DNA from: Candidatus Daviesbacteria bacterium
Lineage (GTDB): Bacteria; Patescibacteriota; Microgenomatia; Daviesbacterales; UBA10151
DNA length: 64,000 bases
Direction: 5' to 3'
Assembly (NCBI GenBank): GCA_030648645.1
Contig: JAUSHL010000038.1
Coordinates: 3,657-67,656 of the forward strand
Below, piece after piece: positions 5,170 through 53,982 of this stretch. Below the pieces are notes generated by a model. That model had not been told where the DNA came from and did not search any database. It saw only the letters and a program-made list of their open reading frames with translations. Positions within the stretch are counted from its first letter, which is position 1. The number at the start of each line of letters is the position of its first letter. The position numbers and the translations under genes are program-made.

Positions 5170-6270
5170 TCAACTTAGATTCACCGGCATTATAATATAT
5201 TGTAACCCCTCTTCTCCAATTGGTTTAATTAAAGTCGCAGATAAAATCCCGGAAAATTCCATTACTACCTTTGTGGTATTTAAATTAGAAAAAGCATCAA
5301 TTAAAAACTTAGTATTAAAAGCAATAGCAATATCTTCTCCCTCTTTTTCTGCTTCAAATTGTTTTTCCTGACTCCCCAACTCTTTTGCCTCAGAACTTAA
5401 AATAATTTTTCCCTCCAGACAATTTAATTTAACAATATTGGCTTCATTTCGGGAAAACACAGCTGCCAATTTTACTGCTTTCAAAAATCCACTTCTGTCT
5501 AAAATAACTTTAGTAATTACTTTTTCCGGAATAATTTTTTCCCAAGCCGGAAATTGTCCTTCAATCAAGCGGGAGGATACTTGGGTATTACCAAAAGAAA
5601 AAATCATTTGATTATTATCTTCCGACACGGCAATTTTAACCAAATCAGCAGAATCTTCTGAAATTAAACGGACAATTTCTTCAAAAGTCCTCTTTGGCAC
5701 TAAAGCTTTAAAAGAAGATGTTTCGGCAATCGGCACAATTTTATGTGCCAGACGATAACCGTCGGTGGCAACCAATTGTAGTTTTTTATCTTTTATCTCC
5801 GTTAAAATTCCGGTTAAAGTTGGTCTGCCATCATCCATGGCGGCGGCAAAAATAATTTCCGGCAAAGATTTAACTAAAATTTCCGATTCAATTGAAACTG
5901 TATCTTTCCCAAGTAAAGGAATTGATGGAAATTCCAAAGCCGAAATACCGTTTAATTTGGAAGAAAAAGTCGGAGTAGAAATTTCTATTTGATCATTACT
6001 TCCACTTATTTCAATTTTTTCACCTGATAAATTAGCAATTACTTCCACAAAAGTTTTAGCCGGCACTGTCACTTCTCCTTCTTCTAAAATTTCGGCATTA
6101 ATAAATTTTACTACGCCAATTTCTAAGTTTGTGGAAGAAAGTTTTAATTTTCCGGAAGAAGCCTGAACTAAAACATTGCCCAAAACCGGAAGTTGTGCAC
6201 GCACACCAGTTGATCTGGCGACAGCTTGCAGTGTGGGTATTAAATCCTGTTGTAAGATTATAAATTTCAT
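5170..6270 (-). CDS. dnaN: DNA polymerase III beta subunit (sliding clamp)
   Basis: N-terminus MKFIILQQDLIPTLQAVARSTGVRAQLPVLGNVLV typical of DnaN; 366 aa; adjacent to dnaA. Confidence 0.9.
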   Translation of the reverse strand: MKFIILQQDLIPTLQAVARSTGVRAQLPVLGNVLVQASSGKLKLSSTNLEIGVVKFINAEILEEGEVTVPAKTFVEVIANLSGEKIEISGSNDQIEISTPTFSSKLNGISALEFPSIPLLGKDTVSIESEILVKSLPEIIFAAAMDDGRPTLTGILTEIKDKKLQLVATDGYRLAHKIVPIAETSSFKALVPKRTFEEIVRLISEDSADLVKIAVSEDNNQMIFSFGNTQVSSRLIEGQFPAWEKIIPEKVITKVILDRSGFLKAVKLAAVFSRNEANIVKLNCLEGKIILSSEAKELGSQEKQFEAEKEGEDIAIAFNTKFLIDAFSNLNTTKVVMEFSGILSATLIKPIGEEGLQYIIMPVNLS

Positions 6271-6354
6271 ATTTTTATAATGAGTATAATTTTAAATTTT
6301 AAATTTTAAATTTTAAAATTGCTTTAAAATTTTAATTTTGGATTTTAAAATTAC

Positions 6355-6816
6355 TCATTTTCCTCTGGTGACAAACCCATGTACTTCTTCTTCACTAACT
6401 TTAATCAATCTAAAATTAACTCTCCCGGTTGTAATTAGGTTTTTAATGTGTTTTTCCTCTTCTGTCAAGACATGAAAATTTCCTGACTTTACTTCAATAA
6501 AATCAATTCTCTCATTATTTTTAATACCAATAAAATCTACAGGCTGACCTAAAGGAATAATCCGGTCATAATCATATCTAAGTTCAGCATAAGTTAAAAG
6601 CTCAGCCATTTTCCCCTTTTGCGGATTAATTGATCCCTGAATAGTTTGCAATACTCTGGCTGGTAAATCCTGTAATCCTTTGTACAGATCAATTAAATCA
6701 GTTGGAATATCACTCCCACCCTTGCGGTGAAGCCTGCCAAACAAATAAGCTACCAATAAGGCTAAAATACCTATTAAAATGTAAATAAAAGTTTGATCCA
6801 TTGTTAGTTTGTCCAC
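6355..6816 (-). CDS. membrane-anchored protein with putative PD-(D/E)xK nuclease-like fold
   Basis: N-terminal TM helix; PVDFIGI...(11 aa)...DFIEVKSG resembles D...(D/E)xK core of Hjc/Mrr-like nucleases; sits between dnaA and dnaN. Confidence 0.3.
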   Translation of the reverse strand: MDKLTMDQTFIYILIGILALLVAYLFGRLHRKGGSDIPTDLIDLYKGLQDLPARVLQTIQGSINPQKGKMAELLTYAELRYDYDRIIPLGQPVDFIGIKNNERIDFIEVKSGNFHVLTEEEKHIKNLITTGRVNFRLIKVSEEEVHGFVTRGK

Positions 6817-7127: not shown

Positions 7128-8459
7128 ATCCAATAATTTTTGCTTTATCTCTCCAATAATTTTTTGAATTTCACTGTCTGTATTTAAAATTACCCCAATT
7201 TTTTCTACGCCGTGCATAATAGTTGTGTGATCTCTTCCTCCCAACATTTCACCGATCTTTTCATAAGGTAGTTTACAGTCTTGATATAAGATATACATAG
7301 CAATCTGACGGGATCTGACGAGATCTTTTTTACGGTTTGGTCCCACTAAATCTGCCATTTTAATATCAAAATATTGATTAATACCGGCTAAAACCTTTTT
7401 TTGATCAATTTTAAAGCCACTGGTTACACTTACTTTTCCCAACAGAAATCGGACATTTTCCTCATTAAATTCTTTCCCTGTGAGTTTTAAGGTTTGAATA
7501 ATCTGCATTAATTTACCTTCTAACTCACGCCCATTGGTAGAGATATTTTCAGCAATTAAAGTTAAACAATTTTCCGGAATATCATCCCCTTTTTCCTTAC
7601 ATTTAGCCTTTAAAATTGCGACCCTAGTATCAAAATCAGGAAGTTGAATATCAACCATCATTCCTCCCTGAAAACGGGAAGCCAAACGGGGTTCTAATTT
7701 CTGAATTTCATGAGGAGGACGGTCGGCTGTGACAATAATTTGGATATTTTTACCTTGTAGATCATTAAAAGTGTGAAAAAATTCTTCCTGTGTTGAATCA
7801 CGGCCGGATAAAAATTGGACATCATCAATTAGTAATAAATTACAGCTCCTATATTTAGTTCTAAATTGGGTCATACTTTTGGTCTGAATCCCCTGTACTA
7901 AATCATTGGTAAATTGCTCCAGTGGTGAGTAAATTATTTTTAAATTAGGATTTTTTTTAAGAAGAGCGTGTCCTACACCGACCATTAAATGAGTCTTTCC
8001 TACTCCGGTTCCGCCATATAAAAATAAAGGATTGTAAGAAAGTCCGGGATTGGCAATGACAGCTTGGGCTGCAGCATAGGCTAGATTGTTAGAAAGTCCA
8101 ACCACAAAATTCTCCAGAGAATATTTGGGATTTAAGTTGGTAATATTAGTTTTTGGGGTACTGGAAAATAAATTTAGTTCAAAATTATCATCTTCCGGAT
8201 TTTCTTCAGAGCGAGATTTAGTACTGCTCACTCTCAAATCAATTGGAATGGGCTTACCTAGGATCTGTTTTACAGCTTCTTCTAATACATCCTGATGTTT
8301 AGTATGGATTTCCTGCTTGATAAAATGAGTTGCTACAAAAATCACAAATTTTCCATCCACTTCCCCATCACAACTAGCCTTAGCAAACCACATTTTGTAA
8401 TTTATCGGAGAAACCTGATCTTTTATTATTTCCAGTACTTTATGCCATTCTTTATTCAT
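7125..8459 (-). CDS. dnaA: chromosomal replication initiator protein DnaA
   Basis: AAA+ Walker A GGTGVGKTHL, DnaA box-binding C-terminal domain; 444 aa; followed by dnaN. Confidence 0.95.
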   Translation of the reverse strand: MNKEWHKVLEIIKDQVSPINYKMWFAKASCDGEVDGKFVIFVATHFIKQEIHTKHQDVLEEAVKQILGKPIPIDLRVSSTKSRSEENPEDDNFELNLFSSTPKTNITNLNPKYSLENFVVGLSNNLAYAAAQAVIANPGLSYNPLFLYGGTGVGKTHLMVGVGHALLKKNPNLKIIYSPLEQFTNDLVQGIQTKSMTQFRTKYRSCNLLLIDDVQFLSGRDSTQEEFFHTFNDLQGKNIQIIVTADRPPHEIQKLEPRLASRFQGGMMVDIQLPDFDTRVAILKAKCKEKGDDIPENCLTLIAENISTNGRELEGKLMQIIQTLKLTGKEFNEENVRFLLGKVSVTSGFKIDQKKVLAGINQYFDIKMADLVGPNRKKDLVRSRQIAMYILYQDCKLPYEKIGEMLGGRDHTTIMHGVEKIGVILNTDSEIQKIIGEIKQKLLD

Positions 8460-9485: not shown

Positions 9486-9722
9486 TCAAGCAAAGGAAGG
9501 AAGTATAAGCTTATTTAGTTTCACTAAATATCTTGAACCCAAAATAAGTATTTTGGGTATAATCTAATTCAACTCAAGCTTGTAAAAATTCGTTGAATAT
9601 CTTGAATTCAAAATGAAGCATTTTGAATATAAACCAATTTAACTCGTCCACCAGTGGCGGACTCATTAAATAGTTTGAACCAAAAATTTGCAAATTTTTG
9701 GTATAAATAACTAGATCAATTT
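9486..9722. repeat. ~235-bp direct repeat copy 1 (three tandem -35/palindrome/-10-like modules plus a GC hairpin), left flank of the HEPN/MNT cassette
   Basis: Near-identical to 10586-10812; contains TTGAAC-ccaaaatNNNattttgg-gTATAAT style units. Confidence 0.85.
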
Positions 9723-9736
9723 TTGAGTTCTGGGAG

Positions 9737-10093
9737 TTATTGGATTTTATCTTTCACAAAGCTTGTAATTTCTTTAGCAAACTTATAAGCTTCTTCTGAT
9801 TTTTCCTTAGTAAAATGAATAAATTCTGAAAGATCTGGGTAGCGTGAAGGAATGTAATAGGTGTTAAGAGCAACACACTCGTTTCTTAAACTCTCAAAAG
9901 ACTGGTCACTTTTAATACATTCTTCAAGTAGTGCTCTTAAATCGTGAATTTTCTTGATGTCTTTTTCTTGACTAATCAAATAAGCTTTTAGAGCTTTTTC
10001 CACTGCTTGCTGGGATGTAAAACAAGCTCCATACCAAATTTTTCCTTCCAGACTATTTTTGTAACTATTCAGAGTTTCCCAGTAGACTGTCAT
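9737..10093 (-). CDS. HEPN domain protein (toxin component of HEPN/MNT pair)
   Basis: C-terminal YYIPSRYPD motif characteristic of HEPN proteins partnered with minimal nucleotidyltransferases; 118 aa. Confidence 0.6.
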   Translation of the reverse strand: MTVYWETLNSYKNSLEGKIWYGACFTSQQAVEKALKAYLISQEKDIKKIHDLRALLEECIKSDQSFESLRNECVALNTYYIPSRYPDLSEFIHFTKEKSEEAYKFAKEITSFVKDKIQ

Positions 10094-10157
10094 CGCGAGG
10101 GTCGAAACTTCGACCCGTGGCGATCTAATTAGATTGCTTCGCTACGCTCGCAATGAC
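10088..10157. mobile_element. MITE-like GC-rich palindromic element (tgtcatcgcgagg...ctcgcaatgac)
   Basis: Terminal inverted repeats shared with >10 other copies in window; its terminal tgtcat supplies the ATG of the HEPN gene. Confidence 0.6.
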
Positions 10158-10261
10158 GATTTTATTGGGAAGAACTAATTAGTTACCTATTTTTTGTCCA
10201 GGAAAGATCATCTAATGCATAATTAAGCCATTTCTGAGATGACTTATTTATTGATTTACGA

Positions 10262-10558
10262 TTATCCATATACAATTTTACCAGTCTCGTTAGCCTCTTT
10301 TATAAAAAGATTATCTAGTTTTGCTTTTTCGAATTCCTGGGGTGTTAACACAAATATGTCAACAGCAGTTACTGTTCTTAGAAGTAGATGTACTTGTTTT
10401 TGTCTTTCAAGAAAAGGCAGGGTAGTTTTTTTTATAACGACAAGATCTACATCACTATCTGAGCTGGGTTTACCATTAGCATAAGATCCAAAAAGAATTA
10501 TTTTTTCCGGGTTATAAGGCATAATTTGATCAATAATGTCTTGAACTACTGAATTCAT
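10262..10558 (-). CDS. minimal nucleotidyltransferase (MNT, antitoxin component of HEPN/MNT pair)
   Basis: LFGSYANGKPSSDSDVDLVVI = GS...D.D nucleotidyltransferase motif; 98 aa. Confidence 0.7.
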   Translation of the reverse strand: MNSVVQDIIDQIMPYNPEKIILFGSYANGKPSSDSDVDLVVIKKTTLPFLERQKQVHLLLRTVTAVDIFVLTPQEFEKAKLDNLFIKEANETGKIVYG

Positions 10559-10585
10559 GAGTACATTGTATCATAAAAAAAAAGG

Positions 10586-10812
10586 GGGGGGAGGAAGTAT
10601 AAGCTTATTTAGTTTCACTAAATATCTTGAACCCAAAATTTTGGAGAATTTTAGGTATAAACCAATTTAACTCAATTTTACAACTCTCGTTAAATGGCTT
10701 GAATTCAAAATGAAGCATTTTGAATATAAACCAATTTAACTCGTCCACCAGTGGCGGACTCATTAAATAGTTTGAACCAAAAATTTGCAAATTTTTGGTA
10801 TAAATAACTAGA
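10586..10812. repeat. ~230-bp direct repeat copy 2, right flank of the HEPN/MNT cassette
   Basis: Near-identical to 9486-9722 (shared ggaagtataagcttatttagtttcactaaatatcttgaaccc... and ...tccaccagtggcggactcattaaatagtttgaaccaaaaatttgcaaatttttggtataaataactagatca). Confidence 0.85.
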
Positions 10813-10863
10813 TCAGTTTTTGGGGTTGATAAATTATGCCTCTGTGGTTTATACTTAATAAGT

Positions 10864-12587: not shown

Positions 12588-12600
12588 AGATTTTTGTTGT

Positions 12601-12788
12601 GTCATTGCGATCCGGCGAAGCCGGAGTGGCAATCTTTTCTATCTACAATAAACTAATTTAACTCGTCCGCCAACCGGCGGACTCGTTAAATATTTTGAAC
12701 CCAAAATTTTGATTAAAAGTTGTAGACTGGAGTATTTTGGGTATAGATTGCTTCGTCGTCCGCCAGCTGGCGGACTCCTCGCAATGAC
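12601..12788. mobile_element. composite MITE-like element (gtcattgcga...ctcgcaatgac termini) enclosing a hairpin plus promoter-like module
   Basis: Termini match the MITE family; interior carries atttaactcgtccgccaaccggcggactcgttaaat hairpin and ttgaacccaaaatttt...attttgggtata unit. Confidence 0.5.
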
Positions 12789-12924
12789 AGTAATTTTTTC
12801 TGATTGACTGATCCTAGATTTTCCTTTATACCCACATTACTTTAATGGGTTCAAACTTTTTAATGAGACCGCCAGCTGGCGGTTGCAAAATCGAATTAAA
12901 ATAGTTTATACTTACCTTCATTGT

Positions 12925-19751: not shown

Positions 19752-21996
19752 TTTTTGGCCAATTTTTAGTCATAATAGATTCTCCTGGAGCTATCTTTTG
19801 CCATAACTCTTCTGATAAAAAAGGCATAAAAGGATGGAGGAGCTTTAAGCAGGTTTGGAAAACATATTCTAAAACTGGTTGAGCCTCAGCTCTTCTGTCT
19901 TTGCTTTTTTCAATATAAACATCAGCAAACTTATGCCAGATAAATTCATATAATGTTTCTGTGGCCAGATGAAGCTGGAAGGATTCTAAATTTTTGGTCA
20001 CATCATTAATAGTTTTGTTTAGTTCTTCTAGTATTTTTTTATTATCGATATGAGATTGCTTCTCCGGCAATTGCCGGATCGCAATGACGTCAGTGCCGAG
20101 CGTTGTTGAAATGTCATTGCGAGGAGCCGTAGGCGACGTGGCAATCTCTTTTGGTTTTAGTTCATAAATAAATCTGTAAATATTTTTTATCTTTGTCCCA
20201 AAGTTCCGGTAATTTCTGCATCTTTCATCTATTATTTGTCGGGAGGTTCTGCCATCACGGCCGGGGGCAGAGTAGGAATAGAGTGCCATGCGGGTAGCAT
20301 CTACTCCCCACAGTTGTACCAAATCATAAGGATTAATACCATTGCCTAATGATTTGGAAAACTTTTTTCCATCTATTCCTCTGAGTGTTCCATGGAAAAA
20401 CATGTTTTTAAAAGGAATACTATCCTTAAACCAAAGACTTAACATAATTTGGCGGGCAATCCAAAGGTATTTAATCTCCGGAGCAGTTAGTTCAAAATCC
20501 CAGGGGAAGTATTTTTCCAATTCATCAGATTTGTCAGGTTTACCCTCCGAAGCTTTAGCGGAGGAGGGCCAATTAAGTGTAGATAAGGGCCACATTCCGG
20601 AAGAAAACCAAGTGTCTAAAACTTTCTCTTCCTGCACCCAGTCTTCTCCAGGTGAGTCTTTTGATACTTGTATTTGATTCCCTTTGTACCATATCGGTAT
20701 ACGGTGTCCCCACCAAAGATTGCGTGAGATACACCAATCATGAATTCCACTTAGCCAGTCTCCCAGAATTTTGTCATAGTTTTTGGGTAAAAAGTTGATT
20801 TTATCTAAATTCTTTAAAGCTTTTTCTGCCAATGGTTTCATTTTGATAAACCATTCCTCGGAGATTAAAGGCTCAACAGTAGTTTTGCATCTTTCGCAAA
20901 CAGGGACTGAATGAGTATATTCTTCTACTTTTTCGATTGTTCCATTTTGTTCTAAAATTTCAGCAACTTTTGCTCGGGCCTCGGCAATTTTTAAACCCTG
21001 CAAATCTCCGGCTAGATCAGTCATTTTTCCTAATTTATCAATGGCATGTAAAATCGGAAGGTTATGATCTTTGCCGATGGCAAAGTCCAAAGGATCATGA
21101 CCGGGGGTAATTTTTAAAGCCCCAGTCCCAAAATCTTTTTCAACACGGGTATCTTCAAAAATTGGGATTTGATTATTGTTTAATGGATTGATGGCAAATT
21201 TTCCAATAAATTTGGCAAATTTTGGATGATTGGGAAAAACTGCAATACCGCAATCTGCATAAATTGTTTCCGGACGGGCGGTGGCAATAGTAATAAATTG
21301 ATCTGTCATCCCGTACTTCGTCCAAAAGACGATCAGCCTTTGGCTGATGATACGGGATCCATGGATTCCCGCTTCCGCGGGAATGACATTATTGTTTTGT
21401 ATTTGATATTTAACATAATAAAGCTTTTCTTTTCTTTCCTCATATTCCATTTCCACATCTTCAATGGCAGTGTTGCATTTGGGACACCACTCTACAATAT
21501 AAGCCCCTTTATAAATTAAATCTTGCTCCCACAAAGTTTTAAATTCTACAAAAGTGGCTTGTTGAATTTTGGGATCCAAGGTAAAAACTTCTCTTGACCA
21601 GTCAGCCGAAATACCTAAAAAAGTCCAGGTGTTATGAAAAGAATTATAAATTTTTTCTTTAAATTTCCAAGCCCTTTTCATCCAACTATCATATCCTAAC
21701 TTTTGTTTGGAAAGATTTTCTTTGGCCAGTTCTTTGTTAAAAGTTGATTCAAAAATAATGCCGGCATGATCAACCCCCGGTAATAATAAAACATCAAATC
21801 CTTGCATTCGTTTGAAACGGGCAACTGCATCCAAAATTGATTGTTGCATAGCATGACCGAGGTGCAAATCTCCATTGACATTGGGTGGAGGCATTAAAAG
21901 GGAATAAGGTTTTTTAGAAGACTTAGGATCTGCTTTAAACAGCCCCGCCTTTTCCCAGAAATCATACAATTTTTGTTCTGAAGTTTGTTCATCCAT
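19744..21996 (-). CDS. valS: valine--tRNA ligase (short form) carrying two in-frame repeat-element insertions
   Basis: HIGH-type motif PPPNVNGDLHLGHA, KMSKS-type KFSKSLGN, editing-domain region WCPKCNTAIEDVEME; insertions at 20052-20148 and 21304-21388. Confidence 0.8.
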   Translation of the reverse strand: MDEQTSEQKLYDFWEKAGLFKADPKSSKKPYSLLMPPPNVNGDLHLGHAMQQSILDAVARFKRMQGFDVLLLPGVDHAGIIFESTFNKELAKENLSKQKLGYDSWMKRAWKFKEKIYNSFHNTWTFLGISADWSREVFTLDPKIQQATFVEFKTLWEQDLIYKGAYIVEWCPKCNTAIEDVEMEYEERKEKLYYVKYQIQNNNVIPAEAGIHGSRIISQRLIVFWTKYGMTDQFITIATARPETIYADCGIAVFPNHPKFAKFIGKFAINPLNNNQIPIFEDTRVEKDFGTGALKITPGHDPLDFAIGKDHNLPILHAIDKLGKMTDLAGDLQGLKIAEARAKVAEILEQNGTIEKVEEYTHSVPVCERCKTTVEPLISEEWFIKMKPLAEKALKNLDKINFLPKNYDKILGDWLSGIHDWCISRNLWWGHRIPIWYKGNQIQVSKDSPGEDWVQEEKVLDTWFSSGMWPLSTLNWPSSAKASEGKPDKSDELEKYFPWDFELTAPEIKYLWIARQIMLSLWFKDSIPFKNMFFHGTLRGIDGKKFSKSLGNGINPYDLVQLWGVDATRMALYSYSAPGRDGRTSRQIIDERCRNYRNFGTKIKNIYRFIYELKPKEIATSPTAPRNDISTTLGTDVIAIRQLPEKQSHIDNKKILEELNKTINDVTKNLESFQLHLATETLYEFIWHKFADVYIEKSKDRRAEAQPVLEYVFQTCLKLLHPFMPFLSEELWQKIAPGESIMTKNWPKTI

Positions 21997-22028: not shown

Positions 22029-23348
22029 TCAATCAGAAAGAGAGATGTTAGGGTTTGCTTGTAGTTTGATTGGTTCAATTGGGTGATAGTTGTATAAAGC
22101 ACTAGTTGCAATATAGACAGCATTATCGGTACAAAGCTTGGGGGTAGGAATAGAAATTCGCACATTCATCTTTTTTTGCAAAGATTGTGCCACAAGCTTT
22201 TTGGCAAGAATTTGGTTGGCTGCAACTCCTCCTGCAACCAAAATTTGTTCAACTTTAAATGTTTGGACGGCTTTTAAAGTTTTGGCAACTAAAACATCGG
22301 TGATTGCTTCTTGGATAGAGGCTGAGAGGTTTGATATTTCTTGGGATTGCTTCTCCGGCAATTGCCGGATCGCAATGACATTGTTCTTCTTGTCATCGCG
22401 AGGAGTGTTAACGACGAAGCGATCTCTTGCAATATTTGAAATTGCAGTTTTTAAACCGGAAAAAGAAAAATCCCAGCCATAGGCTGGTCCGCCTTTGGCG
22501 GAAAAATTTCCATTCTCCAGCATTGGTCGGGGTAGTGGATATGCTTTGGGATTTCCTTTTTCTGCCATTTTTGAAATGGACGGACCTCCGGGATAAGGTA
22601 AACCCAGTAGCCTGGCAGATTTATCAAAACATTCACCGGCAGCATCGTCACGGGTTCCACCTAAATATTTATATTTACCATGATCTGTCATTAAAATTAA
22701 ATCTGTATGACCTCCTGAAACAAGAAGACCAATGGCGGGGAAGGTGGGTACTGTAAAATTGTCATTGCGAGGAAGGTCGATACTTCGACCCGGCGCGGCA
22801 ATCTTATTAATTGATTTGGCAGATTGTTTCGCGGAGTTTACGCTGAGATTGCTTCGCTCTGCTCGCAATGACGTCGAAGTGTTCGCAATGACAGGAGAAA
22901 TCCAATTTGCATAAAAATGACCCAGTAAGTGATTCACCGGTATTAATGGTTTATTCCAAACAGTTGCCAGAACTTTAGCAGTTTCTACTCCCACAAGGAG
23001 AGAACCAATTAGCCCCGGACCTTCGGTAACAGCAATGGCATCGATAGATTTTATTATCTCTTTATTGTCATGCTGAACTTGTTTCAGCATCTTGTCTGTG
23101 GATCCCGAAATAAATTCGGGATGACACTTTGCTTGAGTAAGTGCTTCCTGAATGACGGGAATAATGGATTTTAATTGTTCACGGGCTGCCTGTTCCGGGA
23201 TCACACCGCCGAATTTAGCTTGTAACTCAGCCGAGGATGCCACAATATTGGACAATATCGTTACTCGTTTCTCGTCACTCGCCACGATAGCACAAGCTGT
23301 CTCATCACAGGATGACTCAATTCCTAAAATGATACGGGGATTTTTCAT
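22029..23348 (-). CDS. tsaD: tRNA N6-adenosine threonylcarbamoyltransferase TsaD (Kae1/Gcp family) carrying two in-frame repeat-element insertions
   Basis: N-terminus ILGIESSCDETACAIV, HLLGHFYAN and LVSGGHT motifs; 439 aa vs ~340 typical; insertions at 22345-22436 and 22760-22893. Confidence 0.85.
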   Translation of the reverse strand: MKNPRIILGIESSCDETACAIVASDEKRVTILSNIVASSAELQAKFGGVIPEQAAREQLKSIIPVIQEALTQAKCHPEFISGSTDKMLKQVQHDNKEIIKSIDAIAVTEGPGLIGSLLVGVETAKVLATVWNKPLIPVNHLLGHFYANWISPVIANTSTSLRAERSNLSVNSAKQSAKSINKIAAPGRSIDLPRNDNFTVPTFPAIGLLVSGGHTDLILMTDHGKYKYLGGTRDDAAGECFDKSARLLGLPYPGGPSISKMAEKGNPKAYPLPRPMLENGNFSAKGGPAYGWDFSFSGLKTAISNIARDRFVVNTPRDDKKNNVIAIRQLPEKQSQEISNLSASIQEAITDVLVAKTLKAVQTFKVEQILVAGGVAANQILAKKLVAQSLQKKMNVRISIPTPKLCTDNAVYIATSALYNYHPIEPIKLQANPNISLSD

Positions 23349-37567: not shown

Positions 37568-39190
37568 TCAAAGACCCGGTAAACAGGAGATATAATCTTC
37601 CAAATCAGGCCCATGGGTTGAATAAATTGTTGGAGCAATCGTTCTACTTAAAAATAGTAGACATCTTTTAATCTCAGGAGGCAGATCTTTTAGATTTTTT
37701 GCTTTTATTGTTTTTGCTTCATCACAACCTGCAAATTCAATACAGTGAGCATCTAAATTATTTAACATTTGCTGATAGGGTATATATGGTGTTTCCAGAC
37801 CGGATTTTCTATCACTGTAGTGGGTAATAACCCGCATGGGCTGGTTTGGCCGGATAGCATCTAAATGAGTAACTGCCAGAAAATCATAACCGGCAACTCT
37901 TCGTAAATATTCCAATATAGATAAAGGAATAGGAGAAATACCTCTAAGTCGGCCTGTAGATTTACCTTTTTCCTTAAATTCTATTTGAATATCAGTTTCC
38001 CACTGTTCATTTTTGACATTTGGTAAATTTCTACAACCAACACTGGAGGTGTACGTTTTAAGTGTACCCATTCTATAGGCAATCTCATTCGGTATAATCC
38101 GTCCATATGTTGCATCGGAAATAAAATTTGATCCTGGACGACTGGCTGTTACATCCGGATAAACACCATGATAAGGATCAAGACCCATACCTTGGGCTCC
38201 TTCAAAGGTAATAGGGATGGAAGGATTATTCCAGACTGTTCCTAAAAGATGATAAGCATCTTTTAACAAATGTGGTTTCAAAACTTCACGGCACAACTCA
38301 AGTTTTTCAATAAATTCTCTTTTTGTTCCCACTGGTCGTTCAACTGGTTTACTCGATTTTAATGATTCTTTCATATTATAAACAGAAATTTCTGCTAAAT
38401 TGGCACCGAACCCCCAAAGTTGTTTTTCGCAAAAATCATAATGATTACCAAAAATTTCTTGATAATCCGGTTCAAACAAATCATTAAAGAAAACTGCATT
38501 GCGAAGGAGTAAACTGCTATAAGCAGGAGCAATGCCCCTACCGGTGGATCCCTTTGATCCGGGAAGATCTTGTTTATAAATTTTCTCGATTGCCCGGTGA
38601 GTGTCCAAAGCAAGTGGAGTAAAACCATCAATAAGTAAATTGGCAGGAAGTTTTGTTCCCAAGCTTTGTTCGACTGCATCCATTTCAACAATCAATTCGG
38701 TTGGATGTATTACCATGCCACGGGAGATAATAGCTGTTGCACCCTCTTGTGCAATTGCCATTGGTAATTGATGAGTTACTACAGTTAGTCCATTGAAAAC
38801 AGCTTCATGACCGGCATTTCCTCCTCCATTATATCTTAATGAATAAAGTTGATGATGTTTTTCGTATAATTGGTGGTTTATTTTTGCCATGACTGCACCT
38901 TTGCCTTCATCACCAAAAAGAGCTCCCTCGACACCGTAACTGTTTGGTCTGATATTAGATGTTTGGGATCTATTTAAAGAGTTGGTAAGACATTCGGAAA
39001 GTTCTTTGGTAAGAGTAGTGTCACTTAAGTTTTGTACATAATCATAAAAATATAAAATTTCTGTGCTTATCATTGTAAACAGGCAACCGGACAATTTTAA
39101 CAAATCAAAGAAAGAAAGCAAGTCCTTGACAATAGCAAGAAGCATGTTTAAAATATCAACCCAGAGAGTAATCTGCCAGCTCTTCGACAA
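37568..39190 (-). CDS. purA: adenylosuccinate synthetase-like protein with ~80-aa N-terminal extension
   Basis: FGDEGKG, GGGNAGH and GSTGRGIAPAY motifs match AdSS signatures. Confidence 0.65.
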   Translation of the reverse strand: MSKSWQITLWVDILNMLLAIVKDLLSFFDLLKLSGCLFTMISTEILYFYDYVQNLSDTTLTKELSECLTNSLNRSQTSNIRPNSYGVEGALFGDEGKGAVMAKINHQLYEKHHQLYSLRYNGGGNAGHEAVFNGLTVVTHQLPMAIAQEGATAIISRGMVIHPTELIVEMDAVEQSLGTKLPANLLIDGFTPLALDTHRAIEKIYKQDLPGSKGSTGRGIAPAYSSLLLRNAVFFNDLFEPDYQEIFGNHYDFCEKQLWGFGANLAEISVYNMKESLKSSKPVERPVGTKREFIEKLELCREVLKPHLLKDAYHLLGTVWNNPSIPITFEGAQGMGLDPYHGVYPDVTASRPGSNFISDATYGRIIPNEIAYRMGTLKTYTSSVGCRNLPNVKNEQWETDIQIEFKEKGKSTGRLRGISPIPLSILEYLRRVAGYDFLAVTHLDAIRPNQPMRVITHYSDRKSGLETPYIPYQQMLNNLDAHCIEFAGCDEAKTIKAKNLKDLPPEIKRCLLFLSRTIAPTIYSTHGPDLEDYISCLPGL

Positions 39191-39205
39191 GCTCAGGGTA
39201 AAAAT

Positions 39206-39535
39206 ATGGTAAAAAAAATAACTAGAACCTATAACCTAGAACCTAAAACCTCAGTCAAACCATTGGCAGGTTATGTTTTAATAGAACCTGCTGAAGCGGA
39301 AACTAAAACTTCTTCAGGTATAATCCTTCCGGAAAATGCTCAGGAAAAACCCAGTTTGGGAACAGTTTTAGCTTGTGGAGAAAGTTTGATCTTAGAAAAT
39401 GGCAAAACTATTGGATCCCCAGTCAAACCTGGGGACAAGGTTTATTTTAAAAAATGGGGCAGTGATGATATTAAAATTGAAGGAAAGGAATTAAAATTAG
39501 TCAAATTTGATGATCTGATGGCTATCGTTGAGTGA
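39206..39535 (+). CDS. groES: co-chaperonin GroES
   Basis: ...KPLAGYVLIEPAEAETKTSSGIILPENAQEKPSLGTVLACG... Confidence 0.85.
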   Translation: MVKKITRTYNLEPKTSVKPLAGYVLIEPAEAETKTSSGIILPENAQEKPSLGTVLACGESLILENGKTIGSPVKPGDKVYFKKWGSDDIKIEGKELKLVKFDDLMAIVE

Positions 39536-39554
39536 AGTTGACCCGCCTCTGGCG

Positions 39555-39704
39555 AGGTCATCCTGAGCGTAGTCGAAGGATTGATGACTTAATGGCAATA
39601 GTGGAGTGAGATTGCTTCTCCGCCAGTTGGCGGATCGCAATGACGCCAGCACTGAGTGTAGTTGAAGTGTCATTGCGAGGAGCCGAAGGCGACGTGGCAA
39701 TCTA
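39555..39704. mobile_element. MITE-like element immediately downstream of groES
   Basis: gaggtcatcctgagcg ... gagattgcttctccgccagttggcggatcgcaatgac ... gtcattgcgaggagccgaaggcgacgtggcaatct. Confidence 0.6.
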
Positions 39705-39722
39705 TGAAAAAGGGAGAAAAAT

Positions 39723-40109
39723 ATGGTTATAGAAACAAATAGACAATTTGAAGTGGATGCTAAATCGGTGGAATTAATTGATAGTGGGTTAGTGGCAAAA
39801 TCTGTAGATGGTACTAAACTGTTTAAGTGGGTTGATTACGGGAGCTCTATTATATTCGCCTATGCCCGACACTTATCAGATGACAAATCAGCAATAGAGA
39901 TGTTGGATAACATGTGTCAAGCACGAAATGGTAATATGTCAGCTTTAACTCAATATCGTAGTTTAGTAGAGTCATCATTAAAGCATTATCAACAACTGCA
40001 TCCAGAATATGAGAACTGTGTTTTAGGGGTGGATGTTTCAATTGAAAGAAGGGAACAGATAAAATATAATCATCGTGAAATTGGTATTTGGAAGCCAATT
40101 AGTATTTAA
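39723..40109 (+). CDS. hypothetical protein (gene 1 of 3 inserted between groES and groEL)
   Basis: ORF track; preceded by AGGGAGAAAAATATG. Confidence 0.4.
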   Translation: MVIETNRQFEVDAKSVELIDSGLVAKSVDGTKLFKWVDYGSSIIFAYARHLSDDKSAIEMLDNMCQARNGNMSALTQYRSLVESSLKHYQQLHPEYENCVLGVDVSIERREQIKYNHREIGIWKPISI

Positions 40110-40120
40110 AGGAGAAAAAT

Positions 40121-40573
40121 ATGACAGAAATAGTATCAGAAATAAAACAATTACAGATTAATCCCAGAACTATTAGAAGAAGTGAGGGGGAGTTTTTCGC
40201 AACAGGTAGAAATGGAGTAGATATTTTTTGTCTCTTAGGTAGTGTAGGAAGTTTGCTGGATGAATATCTTACTTATAAGCATTTAGCTGGTCAAAAATTA
40301 TCAGAAGAATTATCAGGCGAATATAGAGATTTAGCCAAAAGAGCTCTTGATTGGTATATAAAAGAAAATTTTGAAAATAGAAGGGATATGGCTTTAGGTG
40401 TTCTGGTTGATGAGAATGAAGAAGGAGAATTAATGTATAAGCATGATGATCTGGGTTATTGGAAAAAAGTTGGCAAAAAAGCTAGACATGCTGGAGGAGT
40501 AATAAGGATAAGGAGACAAAATGGTTATGCGGATGGATATTCATGGAGAATAGTAGAGATACCAGTAACTTAA
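40121..40573 (+). CDS. hypothetical protein (gene 2 of 3 inserted between groES and groEL)
   Basis: ORF track; preceded by TAAAGGAGAAAAATATG. Confidence 0.4.
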   Translation: MTEIVSEIKQLQINPRTIRRSEGEFFATGRNGVDIFCLLGSVGSLLDEYLTYKHLAGQKLSEELSGEYRDLAKRALDWYIKENFENRRDMALGVLVDENEEGELMYKHDDLGYWKKVGKKARHAGGVIRIRRQNGYADGYSWRIVEIPVT

Positions 40574-40583
40574 GGAGAAAAAT

Positions 40584-40865
40584 ATGGCAAATATTTATTT
40601 TGAAATAAGAACAGACCCATCTATAATAAAACAGTTGATAAATTCAAGTCAATGTTTGTGGAATAAAGTTTATGACAATGCCGTGGCAGTTGTTAAAGGG
40701 CAGGAAAAACCGGATTTTCGTGTGAATATTGCATATCTTGAAATCAAAAGGGATTTGGCTACTTTAACCGGGGATATTCATGAAGAAGGCAGACTGAATG
40801 ATTTAAGAAGAAATTTGGAAAGATCATCGAGCACATCCTCTGCTGAAAGAAGAAGGGGATATTAA
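40584..40865 (+). CDS. hypothetical protein (gene 3 of 3 inserted between groES and groEL)
   Basis: ORF track; preceded by TAAGGAGAAAAATATG. Confidence 0.4.
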   Translation: MANIYFEIRTDPSIIKQLINSSQCLWNKVYDNAVAVVKGQEKPDFRVNIAYLEIKRDLATLTGDIHEEGRLNDLRRNLERSSSTSSAERRRGY

Positions 40866-40880
40866 TTAAAGGAAAAAAAT

Positions 40881-42518
40881 ATGGCTAAAATATTGAAATT
40901 TGATAGTGAAGCAAGAGAGAAATTATTAAAAGGGATTAATATCCTGACTGAGGCTGTGGCTTCAACACTGGGACCCAAGGGAAGAAATGTTGCCATAGAT
41001 CGCAAATGGGGTGCTCCCAATGTGGTCCATGACGGAGTAACTGTTGCCAAAGAAATTGAACTGGAAGATCCATTTGAAAATATGGGGGCTCAACTGATTA
41101 AGGAAGCAGCCTCCAAAACCAATGATGTGGCAGGAGATGGAACCACCACTGCTACTATTTTGGCTCAAGCCATTGTGGCAGAAGGCTTAAAAAATATTCA
41201 GGCCGGAGCCAATCCAATGATTTTGCGACACGGTATTGAAAAGGCAGTTGATATTTTAGTTGAGGAATTGAAGAAAATGAGCAAAAAACTTACTCTGCCT
41301 TCAGAAATTACTCAGGTTGCCACTATTTCTGCTCAGGATGAAGTAATCGGTAAAATAATTTCTGATGCTATTTCCCGGGTTGGTAAAGATGGAGTAATTA
41401 CAGTTGAGGAGGGAAAAACTATGGAAATGAGCGTTGATTATAAGGAAGGTATGGAATTTGAAAAAGGCTATGCTTCTCCTTATTTTGTCACTGACACTGA
41501 TAAGATGGAATCTTCTATTGAAGATGCTCACATCTTAATTACTGATAAGAAAATCTCCAATATGGCCGAACTTTTGCCTTTCCTGGAAAAGTTTGTCCAA
41601 GTTTCGAAAAATTTAGTCATTATTGCTGATGAGATTGAGGGAGAAGCCTTAACTACATTGGTGGTTAATAAACTTCGGGGAGTATTTAATGTTTTGGCAG
41701 TAGGAGCACCAGGGTTTGGCGATCGAAGAAAAGAAATGCTTTCCGATATTGCTATTTTAACTGGTGGAACAATAATTTCCGAAGATACCGGCCGAAAACT
41801 TGATTCAGTTGAAGTGACTGATTTAGGTAGAGCTGGAAGAGTCACCTCTTCCAAAGATACAACTTTAATTGTTGATGGAAAAGGATCAAAGAGTAAAATT
41901 GATGCCCGAGTTTTGCAAATAAGAAAAGAACTGGAAAATTCTGATTCAGAATTTGATAAAGAAAAACTGGCTGAAAGATTGGCAAAACTTACCGGTGGAG
42001 TAGCAGTGATAAATGTGGGAGCAGCAACTGAGGTGGAAATGAAAGAGAAAAAAGAAAGAGTGATTGATGCAGTGGCTGCCACTAAAGCTGCCATTGAAGA
42101 AGGAATTGTGGCTGGAGGAGAGATTGCTTTACTTAGAGTAGTCTCAGTTTTAGATAAAACAAAAGCTGACCCTTCAACAGGCTCAGGGCAAGAGGAAAAA
42201 GTGGGAGTGGAAATTATCAAAAAAGCGATTGAACAGCCCTTTAGAAGATTAATGAGTAATGCCGGTTTTGATCCAGGGGTAATGCTTGCTAAAGTTTTAG
42301 AATCTGCAGGGAATATGGGGATAGATGTGTTGGATGGTAGTGTGAAAGATTTAGTCAAAGCAGGTATTATTGATCCGGTTAAAGTTACCAGAACAGCTTT
42401 GCAAAATGCCTCATCGGTGGCTATTATGGTGATGAGTACTAATTGTTTAATTACAGATTTACCGGAGAAAAATTCTCCAGCCATGCCCCAAATCCCTCAG
42501 GGAATGGGTGAATATTAA
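40881..42518 (+). CDS. groEL: chaperonin GroEL
   Basis: MAKILKFDSEAREKLLKGINILTEAVASTLGPKGRNV...AGDGTTTATILAQAIV; 545 aa. Confidence 0.95.
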   Translation: MAKILKFDSEAREKLLKGINILTEAVASTLGPKGRNVAIDRKWGAPNVVHDGVTVAKEIELEDPFENMGAQLIKEAASKTNDVAGDGTTTATILAQAIVAEGLKNIQAGANPMILRHGIEKAVDILVEELKKMSKKLTLPSEITQVATISAQDEVIGKIISDAISRVGKDGVITVEEGKTMEMSVDYKEGMEFEKGYASPYFVTDTDKMESSIEDAHILITDKKISNMAELLPFLEKFVQVSKNLVIIADEIEGEALTTLVVNKLRGVFNVLAVGAPGFGDRRKEMLSDIAILTGGTIISEDTGRKLDSVEVTDLGRAGRVTSSKDTTLIVDGKGSKSKIDARVLQIRKELENSDSEFDKEKLAERLAKLTGGVAVINVGAATEVEMKEKKERVIDAVAATKAAIEEGIVAGGEIALLRVVSVLDKTKADPSTGSGQEEKVGVEIIKKAIEQPFRRLMSNAGFDPGVMLAKVLESAGNMGIDVLDGSVKDLVKAGIIDPVKVTRTALQNASSVAIMVMSTNCLITDLPEKNSPAMPQIPQGMGEY

Positions 42519-42521
42519 GCG

Positions 42522-42788
42522 TTAATACACTTGATTGTGTGAGCCAATATCCATAAAAATAACTTCATCTTCTGAGATCGGCATATAAGTTATACGAATA
42601 TCTCCGGTAACAGAAAAAGAATCTAATCCCTTTTTAGCTCCGGATAGCTCGTGATTTTCTAAAAGGGGATTTCTTAAATTAGCTTTAAACAAATTTATTC
42701 TTGTTTCTGTCTGAAGCACCAATTTCTTATTAAGAGAGATTCTGATTTTGTAAGATTTTTTAAATTTACGATGAAGTCTAATTCTCAT
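42522..42788 (-). CDS. relE: RelE/StbE-family toxin
   Basis: C-terminal ...IRITYMPISEDEVIFMDIGSHNQVY RelE/ParE tail. Confidence 0.6.
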   Translation of the reverse strand: MRIRLHRKFKKSYKIRISLNKKLVLQTETRINLFKANLRNPLLENHELSGAKKGLDSFSVTGDIRITYMPISEDEVIFMDIGSHNQVY

Positions 42789-43062
42789 TCAAATGCTTCA
42801 TTAAGTCACTGACATTTGTAAATGTTGTAAGCTTTGCCTTGCCTGATTCTATTTCATCAATCATCTTGTCATATCGTTTAATAGCTTTAGGGGAGAGTTG
42901 AATAGCTTCTTCAAATTTGAGATTAACTTCTCCGACAGCTATTTTATTGATAAATAATCTTATAATCTCCTGTAAAGAAGAAAAACCCATTTTTTCCACT
43001 CTTAAAGTAGCCTGATCGCGTACGCTTTTATTTATAGGAACCTGTAAAGTAACACTGTTCAT
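42778..43062 (-). CDS. relB: RelB/DinJ-family antitoxin
   Basis: Position upstream of and overlapping relE; small acidic protein. Confidence 0.5.
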   Translation of the reverse strand: MNSVTLQVPINKSVRDQATLRVEKMGFSSLQEIIRLFINKIAVGEVNLKFEEAIQLSPKAIKRYDKMIDEIESGKAKLTTFTNVSDLMKHLNEN

Positions 43063-44359: not shown

Positions 44360-44475
44360 ACTTGTGAATTATAAGCCAATTTAACTCAAATTGCAACTTT
44401 CGTTAAATGGCTTGAGCCCAAATTAAAGTATTTGGGCATAACAAAATTTAGGCACAAAAGCAAATCTGGGTGCGA

Positions 44476-50457: not shown

Positions 50458-50583
50458 TTTTTATGGCAAGTTAGTTAATTATATCCAAAACACTCGCTTA
50501 ATCAAAGTTTTGGATTCAAGCTATTTAACGAGACCGCCAGCTGGCGGTTGCAAATTCGAGTTAAATTAGCTTATACTTAAAAT

Positions 50584-53813: not shown

Positions 53814-53982
53814 TAGTTTATTTTAACTGTTTCAGAAGACAGAATGAAGTCTTTACTTTGTTTAAATCATTGATATAAGATGGATATAAGCTAATTTAAC
53901 TCGAGTATGTAGCTCTCGTTAAATATCTTGAACCCAAAATATTATAATATTTTGGGTATAGAGCAAGAAAGGAAAGTTTTAA

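Follow-up and report, generated by a model that had tools for sequence, protein, structure and literature searches.

Small genes, mostly of no known family, between groES and groEL of a Daviesbacteria genome and of many of its relatives

The groES-groEL locus

The chaperonin genes groES and groEL of a Candidatus Daviesbacteria bacterium (Patescibacteriota) are separated by an array of three small open reading frames (ORFs), called here ORF1, ORF2 and ORF3 or, together with their counterparts in other genomes, cassettes. The array lies in a stretch of 64,000 nucleotides (nt), the window (assembly GCA_030648645.1, 68-kb contig JAUSHL010000038.1, positions 3,657 to 67,656 of the forward strand), to which all positions given without a locus number refer. 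Profile matches identify both chaperonin genes. As in a chaperonin operon, the Cpn10 gene comes first and the Cpn60 gene second, both on the + strand; the two are not adjacent across a short spacer, the distance between them being 1345 nt, in agreement with the ~1.35 kb of the initial annotation. The genes of the locus are:

39206..39535, + strand, groES, co-chaperonin of 109 amino acids (aa), full-length profile match to Pfam Cpn10 (E 3.5e-26), C-terminal end LVKFDDLMAIVE followed by the stop
39723..40109, + strand, ORF call, cassette ORF1, 128 aa, family A, paralog of ORF2 as judged from sequence (see below)
40121..40573, + strand, ORF call, cassette ORF2, 150 aa, family A
40584..40865, + strand, ORF call, cassette ORF3, 93 aa, family B
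40881..42518, + strand, groEL, chaperonin of 545 aa with amino terminus MAKILKFD, match to Cpn60 (E 6.4e-73, profile positions 1-487 of 490)

The sizes of the three ORFs had been given correctly; none of them has a match in Pfam, NCBIfam, PHROG or PADLOC. Spacers of 11-15 nt separate the ORFs from each other and from groEL. Same-strand ORFs cover 98% of the segment 39723-40880 (at most 31% in 1000 dinucleotide shuffles), and the GC, third-position GC (GC3) and purine contents of ORFs 1 to 3 agree with those of groES and groEL.

Occupancy and turnover of the gap in related genomes

Related loci, designated by L numbers, were fetched with a GroES probe, 80 from species-representative genomes and 80 from metagenomes. 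Both genes are present in 149 of them, and removal of duplicates and of outgroups from outside the candidate phyla radiation (CPR) left 115 distinct Patescibacteria loci. The gap ranges from ~0 to 2760 nt across the 149 loci. Of the 115 distinct loci, 43 have a gap of at most 15 nt, with 4 nt as its usual length; in nearly all non-CPR outgroups the gap measures 36-102 nt. Small + strand ORFs, 1 to 6 per gap, are found in 56 of the 115 loci: a single one in 40, two in 12, and three or more in 4. The window has one of the five largest arrays; six gap ORFs are called in each of L060 and L081, seven on a looser count. Gaps longer than 200 nt are mostly covered to 85-100% by + strand ORFs (range 60-102%). 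In length the 79 distinct cassette proteins vary from 65 to 230 aa, with a median of 117 aa; nearly all are singletons by BLAST.

GroEL backgrounds were compared by distance clustering, and near-identical ones differ in the occupancy of the gap. L010, whose 95-nt gap has a hairpin and no ORF, is at a GroEL distance of 0.008 from L026, which has a 99-aa cassette. The distance is 0.027 between L008 (4 nt) and L021 (a family-A cassette of 167 aa), and 0.019 between L123 (4 nt) and L084 (a cassette of 85 aa). The empty site reads GGAGTAA-AAAT-ATGGCAAA, and both of its flanks are retained in filled sites. L024 and L034 have leader and scar framework in common and carry different cassettes. These comparisons, and the proportions of filled and short gaps, bear out the initial proposal of cassette-wise insertion between the two genes. 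The survey shows a lineage-wide cassette site whose content, by sequence comparison, turns over rapidly.

The flanks are conserved, with 60-78% aa identity for GroES and 81-100% for GroEL. Between L055 and L146, GroEL is 100% identical over 300 aa, with non-synonymous (dN) and synonymous (dS) divergences of 0.001 and 0.37. The cassettes of the same two loci are 73% identical, with dN 0.17, dS 0.30 and a dN/dS ratio (omega) of 0.58. Omega is 0.24 for the cassettes of L091 and L113, and 0.37-0.65 for more distant cassette pairs, in which dS is saturated. Non-synonymous change is more than 100 times faster in the cassettes than in the nearly invariant GroEL. The omega values of cassette pairs indicate that the cassettes are coding sequences under weak-to-moderate purifying selection and not noise.

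A leader of ~50 nt after the groES stop is common to L024 (6304-6355), L034 (6304-6354) and L084 (~5292-5332), where GTATTAAGTATAAAG-like tandem units stand ahead of different first cassettes; AAGTATTAAG motifs resembling these units precede cassettes in L136, L151 and L152. The cassette site is also present in many records titled 'uncultured Gammaproteobacteria bacterium' (L001, L002, L009, L010 and others), whose GroES and GroEL group with those of Daviesbacteria. The GroES proteins of these third-party annotation (TPA) records of metagenome-assembled genomes (MAGs) are 60-78% identical to that of the window, and the taxonomy of the records appears wrong on sequence grounds.

A conserved translation-initiation block

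Identical ribosome-binding-site/ATG junctions, each led by a TAA, had been described before the three ORFs and groEL. The junctions are near-identical in all four cases; the exact 14-mer precedes ORF2 and ORF3 only, and the copy before ORF1 has no preceding TAA:

39712..39725, + strand, initiation block of ORF1, GGGAGAAAAATATG, one mismatch to the 14-mer (GGGAG...), no TAA ahead
40110..40123, + strand, initiation block of ORF2, AGGAGAAAAATATG, exact 14-mer
40573..40586, + strand, initiation block of ORF3, AGGAGAAAAATATG, exact 14-mer
40870..40883, + strand, initiation block of groEL, AGGAAAAAAATATG, one mismatch to the 14-mer

The start block of groES itself, AGGGTAAAAATATG at 39195, has two mismatches to the 14-mer. 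When up to two mismatches are allowed, the 64 kb of the window contain 7 matches to the 14-mer where 2.3 are expected, and the groESL operon accounts for 5 of them.

Across loci, the cassettes have a 5' consensus made of a Shine-Dalgarno (SD) sequence (GGAG or GGAT), AAAAAT, the ATG and RCA GAA A. Inside the gaps there are 27 copies of the motif AAA[AT]ATG[GA]CAGAAA (0.67 per kb), compared with a single copy in 2.8 Mb outside them, a ~1700-fold enrichment. An M[AT]E start is found in 35 of the 79 cassettes versus 0.9% of 350 background genes (p = 1e-50). Conservation among cassettes ends after codon 4, which rules out a single superfamily with a common long N-terminal helix. The initiation block is similar to the ancestral junction GGAGTAAAAATATGGCAAAA, composed of the groES stop, the spacer and the groEL start. 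The SD/ATG block is, as far as the sequence pattern tells, the boundary of each cassette.

Cassette proteins

ORF1 and ORF2 align with BLASTP E 3e-6 and 20% identity over 131 columns, and are paralogs, both placed in family A. Comparison of the pair to gap ORFs of L021, L060 and L062 in hhalign gives a probability of 84.7% (E 6.7e-6, 115 columns), and reciprocal next-best matches of hidden Markov models (HMMs) yield the same grouping. Three further gap ORFs with motifs that look alike by eye, L160_5782, L116_2254 and L150_1194, were rejected as members at hhalign probabilities of 4% or less. Family B includes ORF3 and the homologs found between groES and groEL in L054 (E 5e-9), L055, L146 and L029; HMM iteration adds L051, L060 and L083, for a total of 8 members.

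The HMMs of both families, searched against six-frame translations of the 1.4 Mb of fetched loci, hit gap ORFs only, with the exception of L104. In L104 a family-A-like ORF, seemingly frameshifted, is found at 7277-7731 directly downstream of groEL (HMM E 0.0018); the 3' side of the groESL operon may accept cassettes too.

Family A occurs without family B in L021 and L062. Family B is alone in L055, L146 and L083, and has an unrelated partner in L054, L051 and L029. In L060 both families are present in another order among six cassettes. Since the two families occur independently, the A-A-B trio of the window is not a conserved module. The initial suggestion that the three products form one system is not upheld by this distribution, by the paralogy of ORF1 and ORF2, or by PADLOC, which matches none of 78 cassettes. 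The two observations that had been named as able to refute the insertion of the genes were not made: they were not encountered in an unrelated conserved context, nor are they fragments of a known protein. The cargo proteins are, on sequence evidence, real, weakly constrained, fast evolving and heterogeneous polypeptides that do not appear to be subunits of one system.

Among 5.8 billion proteins each of the three ORFs retrieves itself alone. An exhaustive HMMER search over 1.84 billion representatives returned ORF2 itself and one spurious match (P0004), rejected as a repeat-protein artefact that sums many weak repeat matches. A tblastn search of 27 cassettes, ORFs 1 to 3 included, gave no hit at E<=1e-3 against 50,697 phage records, in which CPR phages are poorly represented. 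The predicted structure of ORF2 has a compact alpha/beta core (three strands, two helices, two strands) with a predicted local distance difference test score (pLDDT) of ~80. Single-sequence prediction of ORF3 yields three helices with low confidence (pLDDT 56).

No known family was recognised in Pfam, NCBIfam, PHROG or PADLOC for 76 of the 78 cassettes scanned. One of the two exceptions, at 930-1283 of the CPR locus L147, is a four-helix-bundle protein of the 23S-rRNA intervening sequence (IVS) type encoded between groES and groEL (PF05635, E 1.6e-29). The other, at 6665-7357 of L030, is a Cys-rich cassette of 230 aa with weak similarity to phage HNH endonucleases (E 2e-4), which begins with a duplicated groEL head, MAKILKF. 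Some cassettes resemble membrane proteins when their sequences are read by eye. The real groEL of L030, at 7359, seems to start with ATT instead of ATG (ATTTCTAAAATC); the gene may have an unusual start codon or be translationally coupled, unless the assembly is wrong here. In the Flavobacteriales outgroup L075, an IVS-like ORF of 116 aa, judged by eye, is found at 6319-6669 in a groES-groEL gap of 423 nt; the filling of this outgroup gap indicates that occasional use of the gap is not limited to CPR. Two of the six cassettes of L060, the largest array, at 6320-6697 and 7744-8130, have a common C-terminal segment of 42 aa with 69% identity (...IGDRRIPLNVADDFKGLKLPVIGRGDFNI) and unrelated N-terminal parts, which points to partial duplication or recombination within arrays.

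Recombination scars and the structured block after groES

A 9-nt sequence covering the KFD codons, AAATTTGAT, is identical in the groES tail and the groEL head of the window. In L024, L034 and L054 the segment between two cassettes is a mini-ORF, ATGGCTAAGATATTAAAATTTGAC joined to GACTTAATGGCAATTTTGGAG, that encodes MAKILKFDDLMAILE followed by a stop: the groEL head is fused to the groES tail. The joint of this head::tail scar is exactly at AAATTTGAT, common to the groES tail (...LVKFDDLMAILE and stop) and the groEL head (MAKILKFD...). The scar of L051 is degraded, and its mini-ORF overlaps the next start as ATGA. A microhomology joint with duplication of the sequence between anchor and joint, the signature of homology-facilitated illegitimate recombination (HFIR), is thus seen in L024, L034, L054 and L051.

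In the window, the segment 39555-39704 had been taken as one copy of a miniature inverted-repeat transposable element (MITE). It proves to belong to a composite of three parts, of which only 39609-39703 is a dispersed repeat with both multiple copies and a palindrome:

39539..39582, + strand, small hairpin element adjoining the groES stop, with the hairpin GACCCGCC...GGCGAGGTC followed by a conserved core TCCTGAGCGTAGTCGAAGGAT
39583..39609, + strand, relic duplicate of the groES 3' end, GATGACTTAATGGCAATAGTGGAGTGA, encoding DDLMAIVE and a stop, that is, the last eight groES codons and the stop
39609..39703, + strand, palindromic dispersed repeat of 95 nt, MITE-like or repetitive extragenic palindrome (REP)-like, with a long predicted hairpin, repeat families D2 and D6

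The core TCCTGAGCGTAGTCGAAGGAT occurs once in the window. Orthologous hairpin elements occupy the same position in L010, L062, L091 and L043, and a relic groES tail is always next to them, as in the window. The relic tail of the window differs from the functional groES tail by 6 mismatches in 27 nt and is closer to the clade consensus than the functional, 'recoded' tail is. It is a putative recombination scar; with its length and divergence (6/27) it was rejected as a classic target-site duplication. An 89% identical copy of the 95-nt repeat is found at 20051-20147, and a 41-nt arm of it occurs 5 times in the window, including at 22344, 61571 and 62986. The RNA fold predicted for 39530-39725, which includes the hairpin of the first element, has a free energy of -69.8 kcal/mol (z = -3.8).

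Cassettes would move by recombination without a dedicated integrase, a mechanism read partly from these footprints and partly inferred. Whole alleles could be swapped through the long conserved groES and groEL flanks. Stacking would occur by HFIR with one end anchored in groES and the other joined at AAATTTGAT. An incoming groES-cassetteX-groEL-head segment would join the groES tail of the recipient at the microhomology, so that X is stacked ahead of the resident cassette and the fusion scar MAKILKFDDLMAILE with its stop (groES tail ...KFDDLMAILE and stop) is left between the two. Relic groES tails like that at 39583-39609 would originate in the same kind of one-sided event.

HFIR has reportedly been described in naturally transformable bacteria by de Vries and Wackernagel (2002) and by Prudhomme et al. 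(2002). The geometry found here is the one expected of it: a groES homology anchor on one side, the 9-nt illegitimate joint on the other, and duplication of the sequence between the joints. The likeness differs from those cases in being deduced from footprints alone.

Expression of the array

The presumed sole promoter of the operon is a promoter-like site upstream of groES:

39126..39154, + strand, TTGACA-17 nt-TAAAAT, 11 of 12 consensus matches

Two promoter-like matches with the same score of 11/12 lie inside ORF1 and ORF3. Promoter-like matches of all scores number 16, which is not above the expectation from shuffles (11.8 +/- 3.3). The gap contains no terminator-like site, and no Rfam family matches 38800-43000. 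The promoter-like site and the gap free of terminator-like sites make the co-transcription of the cargo with the chaperonin genes, which the initial annotation had put forward, plausible. A single transcript would start at the groES promoter and carry groES, the cassettes and groEL, each cassette being translated from its own groEL-like initiation block with SD, A-rich AAAAAT spacer, ATG and a small second residue. With a common transcript and initiation blocks of their own, the cargo proteins would be produced together with the chaperonin.

Origin and role of the cassettes

We privilege the hypothesis that the groES-groEL junction of Daviesbacteria is an insertion hotspot, built by recombination without an integrase, for promoterless small genes expressed from the groES promoter, and consider it probable. 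The window is one of its larger fills, with the repeat and scar block, two family-A paralogs and one family-B gene. The cargo is probably not an obligate part of the chaperonin. Our committed guess is that it consists of dispensable accessory or hitch-hiking proteins exploiting the strong expression of groESL; that they take part in conflict with phages or hosts is a guess.

Several points weigh against this hypothesis. The head::tail scar is found in only 4 of 16 multi-cassette loci. The junctions of the three ORFs of the window have the SD-ATG block and no scar, so that the mechanism that placed these three genes is extrapolated from other loci. Selection for efficient translation, and not common descent or recombination, could be behind the conserved initiation block. 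No cassette homolog was found outside the groESL locus, in phages or among the 5.8 billion proteins, and the PADLOC and PHROG searches give the guess on function no match. The statistics of family A, with an hhalign probability of 85%, are weak. The DNA sequence is the basis for proposing a single transcript and translation of the cassettes from individual SDs. MAG assemblies could contain errors; yet L062 is a closed chromosome (CP066688.1), and L060 and L081 have the same structure.

On the role of the cargo, we rank accessory or hitch-hiking proteins above filler that keeps translation going, this above accessories of the chaperonin, and last a three-gene defence or toxin system. Filler, which we hold to be doubtful, supposes that DNA in the gap survives only if translated, as Rho-dependent polarity and mRNA decay would otherwise starve groEL, and that the ORFs are selected for an open frame and good initiation and not for the activity of a protein. 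The conservation of nothing more than the SD-to-codon-4 block across otherwise unrelated cassettes speaks for it, as do the 85-100% ORF filling of most gaps, scars that stay intact translatable mini-ORFs, omega values of 0.4-0.65 in most cassette pairs, which are high for bacterial genes, and the lack of a known family for 76 of 78 cassettes. However, families A and B retain motifs across lineages with saturated synonymous sites, and purifying selection on the protein is therefore required. The omega of 0.24 for L091 versus L113 and the compact fold predicted for ORF2 (core pLDDT ~80) also argue against filler. Untranslated structured leaders of 94-197 nt are tolerated in the window, L062, L043 and L022, and continuous translation is therefore not obligatory; the origin of the inserted DNA is left unexplained as well. 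A bolder proposal, unlikely in our judgement, makes of the gap a dedicated recombinase-free platform for gene capture and expression, assembled from sequences of the operon itself, namely the end of groES, the start of groEL and a portable translation-start block. It would be a functional analogue of the integron and a nursery for new or very fast-evolving proteins that are made at chaperonin levels and whose folding is assisted by co-expressed GroEL/ES, and the ~80 dark-matter cassettes would then be a pool of evolving novelties specific to the groESL gap.

It is quite improbable that the cassettes are lineage-specific cofactors, regulators or obligate clients of GroES/GroEL, co-expressed with them in stoichiometric amounts. 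The confinement of families A and B to the groESL operon (the gap and, once, the site just downstream of groEL in L104), the native-like composition of the cassettes and their predicted co-expression with the chaperonin would fit such a role. It is at odds with the 43 of 115 relatives that have no cassette, the pairing of near-identical GroELs with unrelated cassettes or none, and a heterogeneous cargo in which an HNH-like nuclease and a 23S-IVS protein occur beside predicted membrane proteins; a nearly invariant GroEL beside cassettes with a more than 100-fold higher rate of non-synonymous change speaks against it too. We give still less credit to a defence, toxin or stress module of three genes that came in as one unit, even though the genes are tightly packed, promoterless and on one strand, are fast-evolving ORFans as is typical of conflict genes, and have a gene for a YafQ-like toxin just downstream on the opposite strand. 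ORF1 and ORF2 are paralogous and not distinct parts, families A and B are found separately elsewhere with a different order in L060, and there are no matches in PADLOC, Pfam, PHROG or the 50,697 phage genomes. An artefact, either a MAG contig chimeric at groEL or open frames arising by chance, has a negligible probability. The source is a MAG, and assemblers can join sequences wrongly at a conserved gene such as groEL. Homologous cassettes occur, however, in the same gap of independent assemblies, among them the closed chromosome of L062 and Joint Genome Institute (JGI) contigs of up to 1 Mb, and the coverage by ORFs (98% against at most 31% in shuffles), their composition in agreement with the flanking genes and cassette-pair omega values below 1 do not fit chance frames.

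Comparison with known systems

By analogy, the groESL site seems to work most like the minimal mobile elements (MMEs) of Neisseria. These are reportedly, after Saunders and Snyder, conserved gene pairs holding strain-specific whole-gene cassettes that are exchanged by homologous recombination in the flanks. The conserved flanks here are groES and groEL, with 0.3 kb and 1.6 kb of homology. Between these same flanks the close relatives of the window hold unrelated cassettes or an empty site, the pattern that characterises an MME, and no mobility gene is found in the window cassettes or nearby. The groESL site differs from MMEs in its position inside an essential co-translated operon, in promoterless cassettes with a conserved initiation block and in arrays of up to 6 with head::tail scars, and in a cargo almost wholly without known relatives.

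Integrons also carry small promoterless genes, mostly ORFans, in one orientation and highly variable between relatives; they are expressed from one upstream promoter, as the groESL cassettes would be. A Pfam scan of 13 neighbouring ORFs in 31-50 kb revealed no IntI beside the array. The 11-15 nt junctions of the window have no inverted repeat that could represent an attC site at the 3' end of the cassettes; a stop codon, SD and spacer make up the whole of them. Moreover, the conserved element of the groESL cassettes is at the 5' end, at the translation start, and not at the 3' end as in integrons, and the footprints point to microhomology or homologous recombination.

The hyperplastic regions of T4-type phages, with the PeSL cassettes attributed to Arbiol et al. 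(2010), are said to contain novel small ORFs shuffled between short conserved regulatory sequences. The groESL site is alike in its small ORFans, each behind a short conserved expression signal, and in modular gain, loss and shuffling between conserved genes. It is, by contrast, a cellular site for whose cassettes no phage homologs were found, and its signal is an SD/start block where that of PeSL is a promoter and stem-loop. The HNH-like cassette of L030, lodged between conserved genes with the groEL head duplicated, recalls free-standing homing endonuclease genes. No nuclease similarity was found in the three ORFs of the window or in the other cassettes and, since it is confined to L030, homing cannot explain the bulk of the cargo.

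The cargo gives no sign of a known defence or toxin-antitoxin system: ORFs 1 to 3 and the 78 cassettes have no PADLOC match, and ORFs 1 to 3 none in Pfam or NCBIfam. As to a prophage or moron, no phage homologs were found for the 27 cassettes searched and no PHROG match for ORFs 1 to 3, and the neighbours are housekeeping genes. The full-text literature search yielded no account of a gene-bearing groES-groEL gap in CPR bacteria. The groESL gap is a previously undescribed cargo site, genomic cassette hotspots as such being already known.

Neighbouring genes and other features of the window

The genes within ~8 kb of the locus encode PurA, MurB, VanW, a solute-binding protein, bPH_2, PEGA, UbiA and GT4 proteins. 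No integrase or transposase was found within ~8 kb on each side by the Pfam scan of the 13 ORFs in 31-50 kb, four of which are unmatched. Directly downstream of groEL, at 42522-43062 on the - strand, are a gene for an 88-aa YafQ-like toxin (Pfam E 1.4e-6, just under the gathering score) and an overlapping upstream ORF of 94 aa, which by sequence probably form a type II toxin-antitoxin pair.

The GroEL of the window has at 42171-42191 (codons ~431-437) an in-frame loop insertion of 6 aa, in the region ADPSTGSGQ, that is absent in most relatives; the GroEL of L021 has a similar DSSASSGQ. The DNA of the insertion, GACCCTTCAACAGGCTCAGGGCAA, resembles short GC-rich repeats common in CPR genomes, and a repeat may have been inserted in frame into the essential groEL. 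Other dispersed repeat families, unrelated to the groESL gap, are found at 9495-10822, 12594-12914, 44369-44443, 50508-50579 and 53885-53966. Examples are the 136-nt copies, 97% identical, that start at 9590 and 10687, as well as TAAATATCTTGAACCCAAAAT-type units.

Significance of the groESL cargo site

Few gene pairs of bacteria are as conserved as groES-groEL, which is generally regarded as a fixed bicistron; this CPR lineage as a whole uses the 4-nt junction of the pair as a variable cargo site. Synteny and spacer length of groESL should accordingly be handled with caution in the annotation or typing of Patescibacteria. The hosts have genomes of ~1 Mb in which each gene is expected to count, and the site gives access to a large, easily retrieved set of uncharacterised small proteins, whose level of synthesis is presumably that of the chaperonin. 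With head::tail scars and relic tails as readable traces, the site is a natural setting for the study of cassette capture without an integrase, and it makes testable the idea that co-expression with the chaperonin shelters rapidly evolving or new proteins.

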